DNA of 41,470 nt from a virus (Duplodnaviria; Heunggongvirae; Uroviricota; Caudoviricetes), in IMG/VR virus record IMGVR_UViG_2690316195_000001, positions 1-41,470 of that record; one strand, given 5' to 3'. Made by a program: the position numbers and the translations under genes. Below the pieces are notes generated by a model. That model searched no databases and was not told the DNA's origin. It saw only the letters and a list, made by a program, of their open reading frames with translations. Positions 7,313 to 41,470 of this stretch are shown here, one piece after another (positions within the stretch are counted from its first letter, which is position 1; the number at the start of each line of letters is the position of its first letter).

Positions 7313-7338
7313 AAAAATAAAGGCCGACTATGCGGCCT
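7313..7338 (-). terminator. Rho-independent terminator between island genes B and A
   Basis: Stem AGGCCG/CGGCCT (7321-7326/7333-7338), loop ACTATG, adjacent plus-strand A-tract 7313-7320; stop codon of gene B sits in the loop. Confidence 0.5.
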
Positions 7339-7951
7339 CGGAAGGAAGTCCAATCATCTTATTCAAATCTTCTACCCGTAAAGCAGGAAGTGCTGTACTT
7401 GCTTTATCTGCTTCTTTTGGTAGCAATTCTTTGCTTTCAGGCCAAACTTCAATAAGTCGCTTAACTGTTGTGACTGAGTTCAAAGCAGCCCATACATTTG
7501 ATTCGATATCCTTTTTCTTGGCTTCAAGTTTTTGTTGCAATGCGCAGATTTCATCAAACCTTTTTGTTATTTCGTGTTCTGCGCTAAACATGCATTTATC
7601 TTCGTTCGGAGTAGGGAGCAATATATCTTCGCCGTTGCCGTCTTTCCCATATGAAAGCCATCCAACCCTTCTGCCAGATACAGTAAGATAAATTGAAGTA
7701 GAACGAACATCGTATGAGTAAAATGAACATCCCATCTTTCCAAGTTCTTCACTTATAGCTACCAACTTGGATGATAACTGATCCACTTCCTCAGTTTTCT
7801 TTTTACCGCCAAACGCAATAACTCTGGCGTCAAGTGCAAGCTGGTTCTTTAACTTTGTTACTTCTTCAAGTTCAGTGAAAACCCCAGACTTAATTAAAGC
7901 GTTACGAGCGATTTCCTCTTTCATTCTCGTAGTTAAGCGGATTGATGACAT
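7328..7951 (-). CDS. Hypothetical protein (207 aa), AT-rich island gene B
   Basis: Track ORF trimmed to MSSIRLTT with GAGAGGA RBS; AT-rich; predicted coiled-coil segments; no recognisable domain. Confidence 0.6.
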   Translation of the reverse strand: MSSIRLTTRMKEEIARNALIKSGVFTELEEVTKLKNQLALDARVIAFGGKKKTEEVDQLSSKLVAISEELGKMGCSFYSYDVRSTSIYLTVSGRRVGWLSYGKDGNGEDILLPTPNEDKCMFSAEHEITKRFDEICALQQKLEAKKKDIESNVWAALNSVTTVKRLIEVWPESKELLPKEADKASTALPALRVEDLNKMIGLPSEAA

Positions 7952-8133
7952 ATTAATTCCTCTCAAATAAGTGGTTTGCTGCCTAATTTCATTTTCTGGC
8001 GGCCTGAGCATGCCACACCCATTTCACTGCGTGGCTTGCGGTAGTAAAGATTGTGCCTGTCTTTTAACCACATCAGGCTCGGTGGTTCTCGTGTACCCCT
8101 ACAGCGAGAAAAATAGTAAAATCCTCTCACCCC

Positions 8134-8498: not shown

Positions 8499-8771
8499 TT
8501 ACCTCGCCGTCAGTTGTTTTGATTTCCGGTAGCCTGCCGCGTAAATAGCTACGTTTGGCAGGCAAATACTTCCACTGCATTCATCTGCCTTCTTGCAGCG
8601 AAGGCTTCCGAGTGATGCTGCTTTATCTGCTCTGACGCAACCAGAGAGCTTTAGCGCAATTTTTCGCGCCAGTCGCTGCTCTTGCATTGCCTGTTCACGT
8701 TGAGCCTGTCTGCGTGCTCTGCGGCGATTTCTGGCGTTATCGTCAGCCAGATATGTAATGACTACTGTCAT
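8499..8771 (-). CDS. N: N-like transcription antiterminator (P22 gp24 type)
   Basis: Arg-rich N-terminus (NARNRRRARRQAQREQ) and C-terminus ...LPNVAIYAAGYRKSKQLTAR resembling P22 gp24 as recalled; GGAGG RBS; downstream of nutL. Confidence 0.8.
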   Translation of the reverse strand: MTVVITYLADDNARNRRRARRQAQREQAMQEQRLARKIALKLSGCVRADKAASLGSLRCKKADECSGSICLPNVAIYAAGYRKSKQLTAR

Positions 8772-9084
8772 GTTGACCTCCGATGAAACAACTTTGGAAT
8801 TTTTTTTATTACAAAGTGGTTTCCTTCCCCGCCAATTAGACGGGGATGGAAGAGCATTTATGAGCCTTTATGGACTCTGCTCGATCAGTTCTATTTAATT
8901 AATCTCTCAATTGAATGTAAGTATTCACATAAATCCTCCTACCTCTTGTGCAGCTTTCTTGAATATGGTGGCGGCTGCATAACGCCTATGGAATTGACTT
9001 TGGCGGTGACGCGCCGGGTGCTTATCTTCCGGTTGCCGTCGTGCAGCTGCACTTCACGTCACCCCAAAGCCAACTACTCTTTGG

Positions 9085-9127
9085 TTCCCGCATTTCGGCG
9101 GGACAATCCCATCAATGTTAAAGAGCC
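9085..9127 (-). promoter_or_regulatory. nutL (boxA GGCTCTTTAA plus boxB hairpin)
   Basis: Minus-strand boxB is identical to the nutR boxB core (TTCCCGCCGAAATGCGGGAA); boxA-like 10-mer sits 14 nt upstream with the same spacing as nutR. Confidence 0.6.
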
Positions 9128-9173
9128 TTCCAATCTGTTCCGTTTGGCTACCAGCGTCCTGCTGATGGCTAAA

Positions 9174-9260
9174 GAATACTGTAGGTATTTTATTGTGTAA
9201 ATACCCAAGGTATTTATTTTTGATGAAATAATGATAAGCAAATGAATACAAAGGATATTT
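9174..9260. promoter_or_regulatory. OL operator cluster / pL region: three 17-bp sites
   Basis: GAATACTGTAGGTATTT (9174-9190), AAATACCCAAGGTATTT (9199-9215, perfect inverted repeat), GAATACAAAGGATATTT (9244-9260); same half-site consensus as OR. Confidence 0.6.
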
Positions 9261-9345
9261 ATTTCTTTCGGTGTCTGCTTGTTCAGTGCTTTTTTGCGGG
9301 ATATGTGAAGTGTATCCCGATAGCTATTGCTGCCGGGATTATAGG

Positions 9346-9714
9346 TTAGTCAGCGAAGGTTAAGACGAGAATTACCTTAATGATGTCTGCTACAACAGAC
9401 ACGGCCATAGATAAACCAAAGACGATCCAAGCCACAGTGATGTCTTCACTACCATCGTATAGAGTTCCGTAATCACTGGTGTAAGGCGTAAATGTCGCGC
9501 CTTGATACAATAGGTATAAGCTTGATCCATAGAGGATAAATGCAGATATCCCTTGTATTGCTATGATCACAAGAATCATGAAACGAGCTGATCTATGCGC
9601 CCAAGCCTGGCTTATTTTTTCTGATAGAGATTTCGCAATAAAAGCATGCGCTAAGCCGTAAATTGTCGAGATTGCCAACATCCCAAAAAAGCTTGCTATA
9701 GCGGTTCCAACCAT
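9346..9714 (-). CDS. Small multi-pass membrane protein co-transcribed downstream of cI (122 aa from the ATG at 9714; a TTG at 9735 is an alternative start)
   Basis: Three to four hydrophobic helices; AAGGGG RBS before the ATG at 9714; stop of cI directly upstream on the same strand. Confidence 0.6.
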   Translation of the reverse strand: MVGTAIASFFGMLAISTIYGLAHAFIAKSLSEKISQAWAHRSARFMILVIIAIQGISAFILYGSSLYLLYQGATFTPYTSDYGTLYDGSEDITVAWIVFGLSMAVSVVADIIKVILVLTFAD

Positions 9715-9731
9715 AAGCGCCCCTTGCGTGA

Positions 9732-10448
9732 TCAAACCAGCCTTAGTTTTGTCTCAATTGCAACGCCTATAATCTTGCAGTTTCCATTGATTGGCACGAG
9801 AGGCCATGCAGGATTAAGTCCCTTGAGGTATTTATTTCCGCCGTCGATTATCAGCTTCTTGAATGTTGCTTCGTTAGAGTCAGAAAGTTTTGCTATGACC
9901 AAGCTGCCGTTGATCGCCTCCCTTCCGGTATCGAAAAGAACGAATGTTCCCTCTGGAATGCTTAACCCAACCGGTGCCGTCATTGAATCACCTTCCACTT
10001 TAAGCCAAAACGCATTACCTTGAATATGCGCGTCAGACTCAAGCCAAACATCTATGTCTTTAATGGTGTATGGTTCGCATGCTTCACACCACGAGCCAGC
10101 CTGGATACTGCTTAACACCGGATACCTCTTTCCTGCTCTGTATTCCCCTGCATACCTTACGTTGGCATCGCTCTTAAGGCTTTCTGCCTGTTCTGCAACC
10201 TTGGCAGCAATTGACTGGCTAAAATCAGCAATTGAGACTTGCAACAATCGTGCAAAACCAGATGCAACCTCAACGTTTAGCGCATTTCTGCCATTAAGAT
10301 AATGCCCTACCGCTCCTTGGGTGATACCCAGTTCATCAGCGATTGAGTATTGGGTTATTCCCAATTCTTTCTTTTTTGACTCATACAAAGCCTTAAGCCG
10401 CTTAGCGTCTTCGAGCTGTTCTGTCGTCAGTGATTTTTTATTTTCCAT
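9732..10448 (-). CDS. cI: CI-type prophage repressor (LexA-like autocleaving)
   Basis: 238 aa with strong similarity to lambda cI by recall ([20 protein letters not shown]...; FWLEVEGNSMTAP; FKKLI); Ala-Gly cleavage site (QAG) and Ser/Lys catalytic motifs present. Confidence 0.95.
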   Translation of the reverse strand: MENKKSLTTEQLEDAKRLKALYESKKKELGITQYSIADELGITQGAVGHYLNGRNALNVEVASGFARLLQVSIADFSQSIAAKVAEQAESLKSDANVRYAGEYRAGKRYPVLSSIQAGSWCEACEPYTIKDIDVWLESDAHIQGNAFWLKVEGDSMTAPVGLSIPEGTFVLFDTGREAINGSLVIAKLSDSNEATFKKLIIDGGNKYLKGLNPAWPLVPINGNCKIIGVAIETKLRLV

Positions 10449-10458
10449 AGCTTAATTC

Positions 10459-10524
10459 TAATAGCTAAGGTACTTAAACTAAAAATACCCTGAGTATTGA
10501 TTGCTTTGAATACCTGTAGTATTC
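10459..10524. promoter_or_regulatory. OR operator cluster with pR/pRM: OR1 GAATACCTGTAGTATTC (10508-10524), OR2 AAATACCCTGAGTATTG (10483-10499), tentative OR3 (10459-10475)
   Basis: Perfect 17-bp palindrome plus a second site 25 bp away (centre to centre) in the cI-cro intergenic region; candidate pR -35 TTGATT (10497-10502). Confidence 0.7.
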
Positions 10525-10554
10525 TTTGTTCATGGTTAATAACGGAGAGTGCAT

Positions 10555-10749
10555 ATGATTCGAATGACACTTGCCGATTACGCCAAAATCCATGGACAGG
10601 CTAAAGCAGCCAGTGACTTTGGTGTAATCCAGTGCGCTATCAGCAAGGCCATTCTGGCAGGCCGTAACATCATGGTTACGGTAAAGCCTGATGGCAGTGT
10701 GATTGGAGAGGAAGTTCGTCCTTTCCCAAGCAACAAGAAAAACAAATAG
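10555..10749 (+). CDS. cro: Cro repressor
   Basis: 64 aa, [24 protein letters not shown]...[18 protein letters not shown] closely resembles lambda Cro; GGAGAG RBS; start trimmed from the track GTG to the ATG at 10555. Confidence 0.9.
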
Positions 10750-10755
10750 TAACAC

Positions 10756-10801
10756 CGCTCTTTAACAGTCATGGTCCTCATTCCCGCCGAAATGCGGGAA
10801 T
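10756..10801 (+). promoter_or_regulatory. nutR (boxA CGCTCTTTA plus boxB hairpin)
   Basis: boxA at 10756-10764; 8-bp stem ATTCCCGC/GCGGGAAT with 6-nt loop at 10780-10801, no T-tract, so not a terminator. Confidence 0.65.
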
Positions 10802-34745: not shown

Positions 34746-35231
34746 TTATCTTATGTTACTGCTACTGTTGCATGTGACTGTATTTCCAAACCCTGAATTG
34801 CAGTTTGTGTAAGTGTCAACGCGTGTTGGATAGGGTTGAGTTATAACAGGCTGTCTCGCTTTTTGCTCGATCGCTTGCATTGTGTTTACAGCCTGATAAT
34901 TCAATAAAGCCTGCTGGAATGCTTGGCTTTGTGCTATTTGTTGGGCTTGTTCTTGGCTTTGTAATTGAACATAAAGATTCTGAAGCTCAAGTCTTGCCTG
35001 TGCGTCACTTATCTTGCCTTCATCGACACCTTGCCCGAGCATCTTTGCAGCAAGGACATACAGCTTAGGTGTTGGTGCTGATGCCATGCGTGAGTCGTTC
35101 TTCACACTGGCATCAAGGCAATTAGCCATATCGCTAAGCTTTTGATAGCGTTGTTCGCAACTTGCTTGATAGTCACTTACTTTTGCGCATCCAACCAGTA
35201 GAAGCGGGATAATTAACAGTGATTTTTTCAT
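34746..35231 (-). CDS. Lipoprotein of unknown function (moron on opposite strand)
   Basis: Start trimmed to MKKSLLIIPLLLVGC (lipobox LVGC) with AAGGAGAG RBS; Gln-rich mature region with several Cys. Confidence 0.7.
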   Translation of the reverse strand: MKKSLLIIPLLLVGCAKVSDYQASCEQRYQKLSDMANCLDASVKNDSRMASAPTPKLYVLAAKMLGQGVDEGKISDAQARLELQNLYVQLQSQEQAQQIAQSQAFQQALLNYQAVNTMQAIEQKARQPVITQPYPTRVDTYTNCNSGFGNTVTCNSSSNIR

Positions 35232-35301
35232 ATGGTTAACTCTCCTTAGTTTTTCACAGGATATCATGAAGGCAATGCCATTTTATCCGGAAACTAGATT
35301 T

Positions 35302-35568
35302 CTATGTTTCCTTTTTATTATTGCTATACATGGTCTTAAGCGTTTCAAAAACCATTTTCTTAACCATATCAGATTGTTGTTCTGCCATACGCTCTGCATC
35401 GTCAATGTAAACGGATGCAGAGCTTTGTTTAGCCAACGATTCTTCAATCGCTGCAATTATCTCTGAGTTCAGCGATCTGTTATTCATCTTCGCACGCTGC
35501 TTAATTTTCGCGTGGAGTTCATGCGGAAGTCTCAAGTGAAACTGCGCCTCGTCGTATTTACTGTACAT
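35302..35568 (-). CDS. mnt: Mnt-like ribbon-helix-helix repressor (Arc/MetJ fold)
   Basis: FHLRLPHELHAKIKQRAKMNNRSLNSEI...DDAERMAEQQSDMVKKMVFETLK resembles P22 Mnt (FNFRMPMEVREKLKFRAEANGRSMNSEL...NDAERLADEQSELVKKMVFDTLK). Confidence 0.8.
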   Translation of the reverse strand: MYSKYDEAQFHLRLPHELHAKIKQRAKMNNRSLNSEIIAAIEESLAKQSSASVYIDDAERMAEQQSDMVKKMVFETLKTMYSNNKKET

Positions 35569-35689
35569 CCTTGATGCCTCACCAGTTGGGTGGAATGGCA
35601 TCGTAACCTACTGGATAAATACTCAATAGTACCATTTCGGTATGCAATCACATCATGGTTGCATCATATCATTCGTCTGGAGCAATGAA

Positions 35690-37586: not shown

Positions 37587-37619
37587 AAGGGCGAATACCG
37601 CCCTTAGCTTATTTTTTTA
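37587..37619. terminator. Bidirectional rho-independent terminator between convergent tailspike and gtrC
   Basis: Stem AAGGGCG/CGCCCTT, loop AATAC, with A-rich 5' flank and T-rich 3' flank. Confidence 0.6.
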
Positions 37620-38880
37620 TTATATCTAAATACCATCCTGAGTGTGGTAGTGTGTGCATTTTCACGCGGCTCCCTGGCTCTGCTGTCTCATATTTGTATG
37701 CCTCTTGCACCCATCCATTGTTAGGTCTTTTTTCAATTTTAAAGCTAACAATTCCAGATAGAATTACTGAGCAAGCCACTATGCAAAATGCTAATTTCTT
37801 TACATGCCCATGAAGCATATTAGTGAATGCTAGAAGTATCGACACCCAAAATATGGCCGGTATGACAAAATACCTTTGTCCTGGTCCTATTTGTAAGAGA
37901 GGCCATTGAGGCTGGTCTCTTGCAATGACTGGTCTGGCAAGGGCAAATCCCAACATAAGATAAGGAAAAATCACTAATGCTTTTTCTTTCCAGTTCCCTT
38001 TTAATAGCACGTATGCACTAATTGATAGGCCACATAAAGAAACAAAGTAATTTAAAGCATGCAGATCCCACACCTTTCTTGATAAGCTCTCGCTAAGAAA
38101 TGAGCCAAGGAATACTCTGGAGGATAGTATATCCATCAAAATACCTACACCTGCACCAAGTGGCGCGGTCGGTCGAGAGCCTTTAGAAGAGAGAAGTATG
38201 GCGGCTATCTGAATTAAACACACTATTGCGAAAGTTATGTAGAATAAGTTTAAGTTTCTGAATGCATTTTTTACTGCATTGATAGGAGTTTTTAGAATAT
38301 CTCCGTTTGTAATTCTTAGTAAGGCAACAGGAGCTAAAAAAACAATGAATGGCCCACTTAGGCCAGCCACAACCATCACCAAAAAGTCGTGTGCTTTCCA
38401 ATATAATCCATCAGTTCTATCTGCTACCAGCACCAAGAATAGCCATATTGCCATATACCAATGAGTGTTGGTTACGTTGGCATGCACCTCTTCAAGGTGT
38501 GGCATAGTTAAAATGAAGATTGAAATTAATATTCTTGGATATATAGAAACGCTTTTGAATCTATTAGATAGTATGAAGGTTATTATTACGCATCTTATCG
38601 ATAATGCAATAACAGTGAAAATAAAAGGTGATAGATATAATGGGAACAGCATGGAGAATGTCGCAACAAGTTTTGAAATTGTCTGATAGTAACCATCCTG
38701 TACTAAAATTATAGATTTCAGAGGGCCCAATGCATAAGCCTGACCAAGCCATACCCGTCCATCCTCTGCCCATAGTTGAGGGTGTGAAATAATATCAGGA
38801 CGACGCATGCAGAATATGATGAAACATATAACAAATATAATCAAAAACAAAAATATTCTGTTTGTGTTTATGCTATTCAT
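37609..38880 (-). CDS. gtrC: GtrC-like serotype-specific O-antigen glucosyltransferase (polytopic membrane protein)
   Basis: 423 aa, about 10 TM segments, AT-rich; ATGA overlap with gtrB; third gene of a gtrABC-type operon. Confidence 0.65.
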
Positions 38881-39800
38881 GATTGTTCCTTTTTCTTTAA
38901 AATATATCGTGGTCTGCATTTTACTTCCACATAAATTCTTCCTATATATTCACCAAGTACACCGATACCGATAAGTTGAATACCTCCAAGGAAAAGAATG
39001 GAGACCAATAACGATGGATATCCACGAACAGCATTGCCGAATACAAGCGTGTCAAAAATCATCCATGCACCATAAAGAAAAGCAATTCCAGCAACGAACA
39101 ATCCGATATAAGTCCACATGCGCAGCGGGAATGTTGAGAAACTGGTTATCCCCTCAAGGGCAAGGTTCCACAGTTTCCATCCGTTAAATTTAGTGCTGCC
39201 TGCGACTCGTTCTGCTCGTGCATATTCAACGACATCGGTGCGTCCGCCAACCCAGCTCAGCACGCCCTTCATAAACAGGTTGCGCTCTGGCATGAGCTTA
39301 ATGTTTTCCACCACCTCGCGAGACATCAAGCGGAAATCACCAACGTTTTCCTCGATCTGCGGGTTGCTAATTTTGTTATGCAGCTTATAGAACCACTCGG
39401 CGGTTTTCCTCTTCAGTCTGCCATCCGTTGATCGGTCAGATCGTTTAGCAAGCACCATATCGGCACCTGCTTGCCACTTTTCAATCAGATGAGGAATAAC
39501 CTCAATCGGGTCTTGCAGGTCAACATCAATAGGAATAACAGCATCGCCTGTTGCATGGTCTAACCCTGCGAATAATGCTGGTTCTTTACCAAAGTTTCGT
39601 GTAAATGACAGCGGAACAACTAGAGGATCTGAAACAGCCAGAGCATTAATAATTGACTCCGTAGCGTCTTTGCTGCCGTCATTTATGAAAACAATTTCCA
39701 CTTCGTATGGCTTCAACTCTTCGAATTCACGTACCGTTTTATAAAAAATTGGTATTGCTTCTTCTTCATTGAAGACAGGAACTACAAGAGATATCTTCAT
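38877..39800 (-). CDS. gtrB: GtrB bactoprenol glucosyltransferase (GT2 family)
   Basis: 307 aa; GT2 motifs ([19 protein letters not shown]-x-D region) plus two C-terminal TM helices. Confidence 0.9.
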
Positions 39801-40159
39801 TTCGCATCCCTAAAGACAATGAACTTTGAATAGACGAAACCGCACACAAGACTGATGGCTGAGAAGGTGATGAGAGTGACAATTGGAGGAAGTGAACATC
39901 TATCAGCAGCCCATCCAACAGTTGCACTCAGTGTTCCCATGAACCCGACATATAACATGTAGCGCATCGTTGTAGTTGATGCTTTGAATGTGAATTTTGC
40001 ATTCGCGAAGAAGCTAAAACTCACAGCCACAACAAAACCTGCGAAGTTTGCAAGAGCTTGGTTTGTATGCGCGACATAGATACATACACCAAAAACCACC
40101 CAGTGTATAAGTGTGTTCAGCACACCAATCGAGGTGTACTTTGCAAATAGCTTTAACAT
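39797..40159 (-). CDS. gtrA: GtrA flippase (GtrA/DPMS2-family small membrane protein)
   Basis: 120 aa with four TM segments; ATGA overlap with gtrB. Confidence 0.85.
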
Positions 40160-40312: not shown

Positions 40313-41470
40313 TCACTCCACCTTTTCATCAAGCCAGTCCGCCCACCATTGCATCATTTCCCTGCGTTTATCGAGATACTGCGCATGGTTGTAAATCCCG
40401 CGCACAGAACCGCCGTTGGCATGTGCCAGTTGCACTTCAATAGCATCAGCAGGCCATTCGTGCTCGTTCATAATCGTGCTGAATTCATGCCTGAATCCGT
40501 GACCGCTTTCCAGACCCTCATAGCCGATTTGTTTGATCACAAGCAATACCGCGTTCTCGCAGATTGGCTTTTTCTTATCGTTGCGGCCGGCAAAAACAAA
40601 CTCTGATACTGGTTTGGTGATAGAGCTTAGCGTAGTGAGAAGTTCAACCACCTGGTCTGACATAGGAACCACATGAATTTTGCGTCCCTTCATCACACTG
40701 GCGTTGATAGTGATAATCCTGTTTTCAAAATCGACGTTATTCCATAGCATAGAACGAAGCTCTTTCGTTCTTAGGGCTGTATAGCGTAAAACCTTGGTGG
40801 CAATGAGCGATACGATACTTCCTGAAAATGTTGCAAGTGCTTTGTTGAATGCCGGGATCTGGTCGGCAGGTAAAAATGGGAAGTTCTTCTTGCGGTATCC
40901 CTTCATGGCGTCAGCAAGGTCAGGTGCCGGGTTATATTTAGCCCTACCAGTGACAATAGCGTAACGGAAAACCTCGCCGCATCTTCTGCGGGCTTTGTTG
41001 GCTCGCTCCATTGCACCGCGATCTTCAAATCTGCGGATTACTTCCAGCAGTTGCATCGGCTCAATATCCTGAATTTCAAGGCCGCCGATGATAGGTAAAA
41101 TGTCGTCATCAAACATTTTTGCAAGTTCAGTCGCATACCCTACTGACCAGACTTGCTTCTTGTGCTCGTACCATTCCTTGTAAATCGCACTAAAGGAATT
41201 GTTGTTAGACGAAGCCTTTTTCGCCTTTACCGGATCGATGCCAACCGAGATGTCTTTCCTCGCAGTCCATGCCTTATCCCTTGCCTCCTGCAAAGTCATT
41301 AGCGGATATTTTCCTACGGTCAGGATTTTCTCCTTACCGTCAATCTTGTAGCGAAGCTGCCATACCTTTTTCCCTGACACAGGGACATAAAGGTACAGGC
41401 CATTACCATCGAGAAGGCGGTATGGTTTTTCTTTCGGCTTTGCTGCTTCAATCTGCTTAACGGTGAGCAT
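40313..41470 (-). CDS. int: Tyrosine integrase, P4/CP4-57 type
   Basis: 385 aa; N-terminal arm-binding DUF4102-like region (KPYRLLDGNGLYLYV...WQLRYK) and C-terminal catalytic domain (R...HGFRHEF...Y); start codon is the last codon of the window. Confidence 0.9.
   Translation of the reverse strand: MLTVKQIEAAKPKEKPYRLLDGNGLYLYVPVSGKKVWQLRYKIDGKEKILTVGKYPLMTLQEARDKAWTARKDISVGIDPVKAKKASSNNNSFSAIYKEWYEHKKQVWSVGYATELAKMFDDDILPIIGGLEIQDIEPMQLLEVIRRFEDRGAMERANKARRRCGEVFRYAIVTGRAKYNPAPDLADAMKGYRKKNFPFLPADQIPAFNKALATFSGSIVSLIATKVLRYTALRTKELRSMLWNNVDFENRIITINASVMKGRKIHVVPMSDQVVELLTTLSSITKPVSEFVFAGRNDKKKPICENAVLLVIKQIGYEGLESGHGFRHEFSTIMNEHEWPADAIEVQLAHANGGSVRGIYNHAQYLDKRREMMQWWADWLDEKVE

Follow-up and report, generated by a model that had tools for sequence, protein, structure and literature searches.

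HkaS, a predicted three-helix membrane protein encoded behind the cI repressor of HK620-type lambdoid prophages, as a possible phage exclusion factor

Introduction

In lambdoid phages, genes that share the pRM transcript of the cI repressor encode accessory exclusion functions, among them lambda rexAB, 933W stk and 434 hex (PMC3564112), and single small inner-membrane proteins of resident phages, such as SieA and Imm, block DNA entry (PMC10883804, PMC11436027). Here we examine hkaS, a gene found directly behind cI in a 41,470-nt stretch of viral DNA (Caudoviricetes; IMG/VR record IMGVR_UViG_2690316195_000001; hereafter the window, meaning the whole of this stretch), which is a P22-like mosaic of HK620-like early genes, Sf6-like virion genes, gtrABC and an integrase. 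The original prediction, made from the letters of the window, had described the open reading frame (ORF) at 9346..9714 (-) as a small multi-pass membrane protein made in the lysogen, and had offered superinfection exclusion or abortive infection as a hypothetical role.

The genes for lambda RexB and HkaS both lie on the cI strand in the interval from cI to OL/pL, so that both membrane proteins are expected in the lysogen; hkaS does occupy the slot of lambda rexAB, as had been proposed. RexB has four transmembrane helices. At 144 aa it is paired with RexA, whereas HkaS has 122 aa, three predicted helices and no RexA-like partner; judged by profile comparison, the analogy is positional only, and HkaS is no relative of RexB. 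T4 Imm, P22 SieA and HK97 gp15 are, as predicted for HkaS, small stand-alone helical inner-membrane phage proteins (PMC10883804, PMC11436027), but their genes lie at different genome positions from hkaS and no homology was detected. 434 Hex and 933W Stk are accessory proteins that are co-transcribed with cI from pRM and have exclusion phenotypes; the same study reports that Stk is a kinase and that a purified fragment of Hex prevents the RecA-stimulated cleavage of repressor in solution (PMC3564112). HkaS, in contrast, is predicted to be an integral membrane protein and has no similarity to either. SieB and lambda S resemble HkaS in being small phage membrane proteins, but HkaS is without a charged C-terminal tail, unlike class I holins. 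In phage HK620 we find the same gene, with 99% identity of the protein, 99.1% identity of the DNA across the immunity region and the same neighbors (cI on one side; tIMM, OL and pL on the other); nothing substantial differs in hkaS between the window and HK620, whereas the genome mosaic differs.

Results

The gene behind cI is hkaS of phage HK620 and belongs to an orphan family

By sequence, the ORF is hkaS of phage HK620 (AAK28867 / NP_112052), which was annotated in 2001 with the product "unknown" and is uncharacterized. The protein is 99–100% identical to hkaS of HK620, mEpX2 and HK630, and the window between 9000 and 10800 aligned without gaps, at 99.1–99.3% identity, to the immunity regions of HK620, mEpX2, HK630, HZ41, phi296 and phi367, and at 98.7% identity to those of HK140 and two Stx2c phages.

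Searches with the protein led to no family of known function. In PHROGs, which is compiled from the proteomes of phages, HkaS matched phrog_6534 ("unknown function") end to end, all 122 residues aligning with the 122 positions of the profile (E = 2.4e-79), and at E up to 1 this was the sole PHROGs match for all eight diverse family members that we searched, with none to Imm, SieA, gp15 or RexB. Pfam and NCBIfam returned nothing above noise for HkaS; the best sub-threshold match, to Cation_ATPase_C, reached 17.6 bits against a cut-off of 27.3 and was seen in only 2/8 members. No family among the PADLOC-DB v2 defence models was matched at E up to 1, a sequence search of the PDB gave 0 matches, and Foldseek gave a best E of 0.29 against BFVD (predicted viral protein structures) and 0.42 against the PDB. 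No holin PHROG was consistently matched across the HkaS family, and an Rfam scan of the whole window gave no match. The original prediction had named RexB as a family worth comparing, and here hhalign returned a probability of 0.6–0.7%, indicating no relationship; the corresponding values were 1.1% for SieB and 0.15% for lambda S. Across these databases HkaS is thus an orphan family with no detectable relative of known function. This agrees with the earlier failure to recognize a family, yet the gene had already been named and annotated in 2001.

The hkaS coding sequence (9346..9714, -; ORF list and translation) comprises 122 codons and a stop. It starts with the ATG at 9714-9712 (-), and a ribosome-binding site (RBS), AAGGGG, was read from the sequence 5 nt 5′ of this ATG (9720..9725, -). 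The ORF and RBS reported earlier are therefore real, but the overlap of the cI stop with the hkaS start is not, since by the coordinates of that same report a spacer of 17 nt separates the cI stop TGA (9734-9732) from the hkaS ATG. An overlap with the cI stop (TTGA) arises solely with another candidate start, a TTG at 9735, which would give a 129-aa form. We rejected the longer form because in-frame stops close the extension in the homologues from Salmonella (L003) and from L007 (L-numbers being our labels for the related metagenome and viral loci that were compared with the window). The ATG and an AAGGR RBS were kept in all homologues examined, with AAGGAC or AAGGAT at the RBS position in the Salmonella, Hafnia and L007 homologues. 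Since the TTG extension is blocked in homologues while the ATG and the RBS are conserved, we take the 122-aa form to be the real one. The GC content of hkaS is 42.0%, compared with 46.7% for the whole window.

HkaS is predicted to cross the inner membrane three times

Hydropathy analysis (Kyte-Doolittle) identified hydrophobic segments at about residues 3-27, 44-70 and 93-121, and on the Hessa scale these three segments summed to between -0.2 and +2.8 kcal/mol, while all other windows of the protein exceeded +13. An AlphaFold2 model built from an 8-sequence alignment (pLDDT 89.3, pTM 0.76) placed helices at residues 2-29, 41-74 and 89-121, with a short helix at 31-38 and a beta-hairpin at 78-86. 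All three methods therefore supported three of the "three to four" helices that had been proposed, and none offered a candidate segment for a fourth.

The two loops differ in charge. Loop 1 (residues 28-43) contains three Lys/Arg and one Glu, with R44 directly after it, while loop 2 (residues 73-92) contains four Asp/Glu, four aromatic residues and zero basic residues. Applying the positive-inside rule to these loop charges, we infer an inner-membrane protein with its N terminus out, loop 1 in the cytoplasm, loop 2 in the periplasm and its C terminus in. The protein ends with helix 3; it lacks both a charged cytoplasmic tail and a dual-start motif.

Conservation was unevenly distributed over this predicted topology. 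Across 13 diverse sequences, 32 columns were invariant, including K33, Q36, W38, H40, R44, Q54, D110, K113 and the C-terminal LTFAD. K33, Q36, W38, H40 and R44, together with LTFAD, would lie at the cytoplasmic face, and Q54, D110 and K113 would lie within the bilayer. The periplasmic loop was the least conserved part (47% mean pairwise identity, with 2 of its 20 columns invariant), and loop 1 and helix 3 were the most conserved (60–61% mean pairwise identity).

hkaS is probably co-transcribed with cI

The cI gene (9732..10448, -) encodes a repressor of 238 aa, matching HTH_3 (8e-10), Peptidase_S24 (5e-24) and phrog_4 "transcriptional repressor" (Pfam, PHROGs) and annotated in HK620 as "repressor protein cI"; it would be the first gene of the maintenance transcript. 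The coordinates of the HK620 regulatory sites could be carried over to the window through the 99.1% identical, ungapped match. This placed OR3, OR2, OR1 and pR at 10459..10532, where we read operators of the AATACC-N5-GGTATT type at 10459-10524, followed by cro (10555..10749, +; HK620 annotation and ORF list), which is divergent from cI. Upstream of cI, on the minus strand, a candidate pRM (TTTAGT-N17-TAGAAT, hexamers read by eye) ends 6 nt before the cI ATG; this promoter, with a weak -35 element, would abut OR2 in the layout of lambda pRM.

We found no terminator-like site in the 17-nt spacer between cI and hkaS, either by terminator scan or by reading the sequence, and a promoter scan detected no sigma-70-like promoter between the two genes or within the 3′ end of cI. 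Because promoter- and terminator-like sites are both lacking between cI and hkaS, co-transcription of the two genes is strongly implied, with pRM as the promoter in the lysogen and pRE as a further one. The proposal that the protein is made in the lysogen from the maintenance promoter is, at the level of sequence, consistent with the operon layout, with the terminator-free spacer and with the map drawn by the HK620 authors, in which cI and hkaS share a strand, tIMM comes next, then OL3-OL1 with pL, nutL and finally N, and OR3-OR1, pR and cro are placed on the far side of cI.

Downstream of hkaS, neither the terminator scan nor RNA folding revealed a canonical terminator in the window. A GC-rich hairpin, CCCGGCAGCAAUAGCUAUCGGG, was folded just past the hkaS stop (9314..9339, -); it lacks a U tract, relatives do not share it, and nucleotide identity to them is lowest in that stretch. 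The cI-hkaS transcript presumably ends at tIMM (9234..9264, -), an AT-rich, weak hairpin transferred from the HK620 annotation that was not picked up by the terminator scan. Next come OL1, OL2, OL3 and pL (9166..9237, -; HK620 annotation), with operators read at 9174-9215 and pL of the sequence TTTACA-N17-TATTCT, which mark the start of the leftward early operon. The promoter scan found pL independently (9201..9173), and the OL/pL stretch is 70–90% conserved in relatives despite the divergence of hkaS. The first gene of the pL operon encodes the antiterminator N (8499..8771, -; Pfam N_peptide 1e-15, phrog_271) and forms the left edge of the immunity region. There is no second ORF between hkaS and OL/pL, so the reported lack of a RexA-like partner was confirmed, and no ORF other than hkaS was present between cI and OL in any relative inspected. 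We also noticed that 22 of the 34 mismatches between the window and HK620 within 9000-10800 are concentrated at 9265-9289, in untranslated DNA between hkaS and tIMM, and this block looks like a compensated pair of small indels.

HkaS is a small family under purifying selection that evolves faster than cI

In a word-indexed search of 5.8 billion proteins we obtained 12 clusters, none outside the HkaS family and reaching down to 52% identity, and when 1.84 billion representatives were scanned exhaustively with an HMMER profile, two matches emerged, one of them a 44-aa fragment. Among the representative genomes of 185,579 species there was one carrier, an uncultured Buttiauxella. In E. coli, 146 of 5,426 complete genomes carry hkaS, always on the chromosome and at full length (>=80% of the query), and the annotation is "hypothetical protein" in the 12 E. 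coli records listed. The named sources are E. coli, Salmonella, Hafnia and Buttiauxella; this is a tiny family confined to lambdoid prophages of Enterobacterales. Its carriers span podoviruses (HK620, HF4s), siphoviruses (mEpX2, HK630, HK140) and Stx phages, and hkaS travels with the immunity region, not with the virion type.

The arrangement around the gene was stable. In 114 of the 120 metagenome and viral loci, hkaS follows, at a distance of 17–20 nt, an ORF whose C-terminal domain resembles that of the HK620 cI, the order cro, cI, hkaS, OL/pL and N is common to E. coli, Salmonella, Hafnia, Buttiauxella and metagenomes, and cI followed by hkaS is retained down to 50% protein identity. The length of 121–122 aa, the start codon and the RBS are conserved down to 48–52% identity.

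Within the same loci, cI was 86–96% identical and HkaS 50–83%, and nucleotide identity fell across hkaS and recovered at OL. A separate recombination history was considered as an explanation for the low identity of hkaS and rejected: in comparison with the Hafnia copy, dS was 0.73 for cI and 0.67 for hkaS, and because dS is equal in both, the two genes share one history. The genes differed instead in dN (0.022 for cI vs. 0.093 for hkaS) and in dN/dS (0.03 vs. 0.14). Compared with Salmonella, dN was 0.34 for hkaS and 0.083 for cI (4.1x), and compared with L007 it was 0.42 and 0.074 (5.7x), with dN/dS of hkaS ranging from 0.14 to 0.22. These values indicate that hkaS is under purifying selection, yet changes 4-6x faster than cI at amino-acid-changing sites. 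Two metagenome loci (L126 and L127; 1480..1827; both from project CYGL01) carry a frameshifted hkaS reading ...GATFYAFTPVITERY..., and these are either rare pseudogenes or assembly errors.

hkaS behaves as mobile cargo and appears to have relocated once

The position behind cI is not reserved for hkaS. In cI relatives at 76–78% identity, other cargo is found there: one group (L079-L081, L090 and L091; about 3248..3634 in L080) carries a 128-aa ORF in convergent orientation that encodes a signal peptide, MRLLVAAALALPMVANASC..., and the other (L082, L087-L089 and L092) has a same-strand 141-aa soluble ORF without a Pfam match. The gene thus shows presence/absence polymorphism between homologous flanks, which is a criterion for a moron. 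Conversely, hkaS can keep its place while the repressor changes. In L093 (Buttiauxella; 2333-2980) and L133, the N-terminal DNA-binding domain of the repressor is a different one, its S24 C-terminal domain is about 88% identical, and HkaS is still encoded downstream; this points to a recombination junction within cI that would have changed the immunity specificity and left the passenger gene in place.

Two further loci carry the gene elsewhere. In L128 (1250-1869) and L131 (29-494), a homologue 57–60% identical to the window protein lies 21 nt past a tRNA array; downstream of it come a phrog_5440 ORF, a holin and an endolysin, the lysis genes being within a few hundred bases. This is the late-operon site where Stx phages carry stx, a classic place for morons. 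A terminator-like hairpin follows the L128 homologue (2086-2115), and this hairpin and another ORF separate the homologue from the holin. The L128 and L131 copies share 95% identity and are 76–77% identical to a cI-slot copy, P0013 (L214). Because they nest inside the cI-slot clade, they indicate a single relocation of hkaS, RBS included, to the late region. Given these late-region copies and the other cargo found in the slot, hkaS behaves as a self-contained, mobile accessory (moron-type) gene that needs no adjacent cI and is not tied to the maintenance operon. In the L128 array, ARAGORN called the middle tRNA (1329-1401) as tRNA-Phe with the unusual anticodon AAA, which may be a miscall or an atypical phage tRNA.

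Other genes in the window include a candidate lipoprotein gene, a gtr cassette and an Nmad5 gene

Elsewhere in the window, a 173-aa ORF at 34746..35267 (-) with a lipoprotein signal, MKKSLLIIPLLLVGC, lies in the position of P22 sieA and matches phrog_6067, of unknown function. It adjoins a gene for an Arc/Mnt-like repressor (35302..35601), and its homologue in a Proteus phage is annotated "putative lipoprotein." The ORF is a second candidate for a lysogen-expressed envelope protein of this phage. Beside the integrase, gtrA/gtrB/gtrC-like genes (37609..40159, -, and 40313..41470, -) form an O-antigen glucosylation cassette, a known receptor-modifying lysogenic-conversion module. Finally, the pL operon contains, two genes past N, a gene (7328..8011, -) whose 227-aa product matches Nmad5 ("nucleotide modification associated domain 5"; PF18757) over the whole domain with E = 5.5e-72, where HK620 has other genes.

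Discussion

We tentatively favor, by analogy with the systems described above, the reading that HkaS is a stand-alone inner-membrane exclusion factor that protects the lysogen from other phages. On this reading, hkaS would be accessory cargo of the HK620-type immunity region, housed in the slot that follows the repressor gene, and would be carried with cI on the pRM transcript in the lysogen and on the pRE transcript during the establishment of lysogeny. The protein would insert into the cytoplasmic membrane, N-out and C-in, with its fast-changing acidic and aromatic hairpin turned toward the periplasm, and would act alone against other phages. The likeliest route would be to hinder genome passage across the cytoplasmic membrane, or to act on a host inner-membrane factor that incoming phages need, as the unrelated T4 Imm, P22 SieA and HK97 gp15 do. 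Exclusion is preferred because HkaS would be a stand-alone membrane protein made in the lysogen, with a fast-evolving periplasmic face, and is independent of virion type.

Several observations weigh against exclusion. No homology or fold match links HkaS to any exclusion or defence protein, and the literature that we searched contained no functional study of hkaS and no test of exclusion or expression. The best-conserved surfaces are predicted to be cytoplasmic and intramembrane, not periplasmic; this pattern speaks no more for recognition of incoming phage components than for a conserved partner in the host or for an ion path. The faster change may simply come from the relaxed constraint that small membrane proteins usually show. 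Copies in the late region would be active in lytic growth, which exclusion does not require, and the window already has other surface and entry functions (gtrABC, and the lipoprotein in the sieA slot).

We consider it unlikely that HkaS is instead an abortive-infection effector, that is, a latent membrane pore or ion path, resembling RexB or SieB in its logic, that depolarizes the cell upon superinfection when a trigger is sensed by the protein itself or by a host factor. The operon position is the same as that of rexB, and Q54, D110 and K113, being invariant within the helices of diverse sequences, would suit an ion path or an oligomer interface. However, there is no RexA-like sensor gene, hhalign related HkaS to neither RexB nor SieB (probability <=1.1%), PADLOC gave no match, a constitutive pore needs a gate and none is suggested by the sequence, and the late-operon copies would depolarize the phage's own host during its own growth. 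The late copies in L128 and L131, which have no cI nearby, also count against a modulator of lysogeny or host physiology, for example one tuning FtsH/HflKC (and hence CII stability), prophage induction in the manner of 434 Hex, or a host transporter to the advantage of the lysogen. Such a role would fit transcription from pRE with cI while lysogeny is being established, as deduced from position, as well as the cytoplasm-facing location of the most conserved residues, and it has a precedent in 434 Hex, which is co-transcribed with cI and stabilizes the lysogen (PMC3564112). The persistent linkage of hkaS to the conserved cI C-terminal domain despite the N-terminal swap in L093 and L133 could be read in the same way, but adjacency alone accounts for it; moreover, cI relatives at 76–78% identity manage without hkaS, and Pfam, PHROGs and NCBIfam showed no similarity to known regulators. 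We regard a modulator as distinctly improbable.

Still less probable is a lysis-timing factor, holin- or antiholin-like, that adjusts the phage's own lysis or shields the lysogen from a leaky holin. Class I holins such as lambda S105 have three helices with the N terminus out and the C terminus in, which equals the layout predicted for HkaS, and the L128/L131 homologue lies a few hundred bases 5′ of a holin and an endolysin. Against this, hhalign gave only 0.15% for lambda S, no holin PHROG was matched consistently, the protein ends at helix 3 without the charged tail or dual-start motif, and in L128 the terminator-like hairpin and an ORF come before the holin; in 114 of 120 loci, the gene is in the repressor operon, far from the lysis genes. 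A spurious or decaying ORF in the cI-OL spacer, for which one could cite the want of a function or annotated database family and the frameshifted copies in L126 and L127, is scarcely credible: it is effectively refuted by the conserved length, start and RBS, by dN/dS of 0.14-0.22, by the full length of 146/146 E. coli copies, by the confident structural model and by the 32 invariant columns in 13 sequences.

Returning to exclusion, a bolder version, which we find doubtful, would make HkaS the founder of a new sensor-less, single-gene, three-helix family of membrane defence proteins that has a buried Asp/Lys/Gln network, excludes heterologous phages at the inner membrane and can be plugged into the repressor operon or the late operon of a lambdoid phage. 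If true, this would amount to an unrecognized immunity layer in about 3% of E. coli genomes, Stx prophages included.

On the present evidence, hkaS is an ordinary kind of prophage cargo from an uncharacterized family and not a new principle. It nevertheless sits in a common place: the HK620-type immunity region is carried by 146 of 5,426 complete E. coli genomes, and hkaS is its sole passenger gene, listed as "unknown" since 2001. The gene is only 369 bp, and for HK620, mEpX2, HK630 and HK140 the deposited records give both the phage sequence and the E. coli host by name. The lack of an exclusion effect would point toward a role in lysogeny or lysis. If HkaS does exclude phages, a small stand-alone membrane family would be added to the defences of lysogens, and the phage resistance of strains with these prophages would be partly explained.

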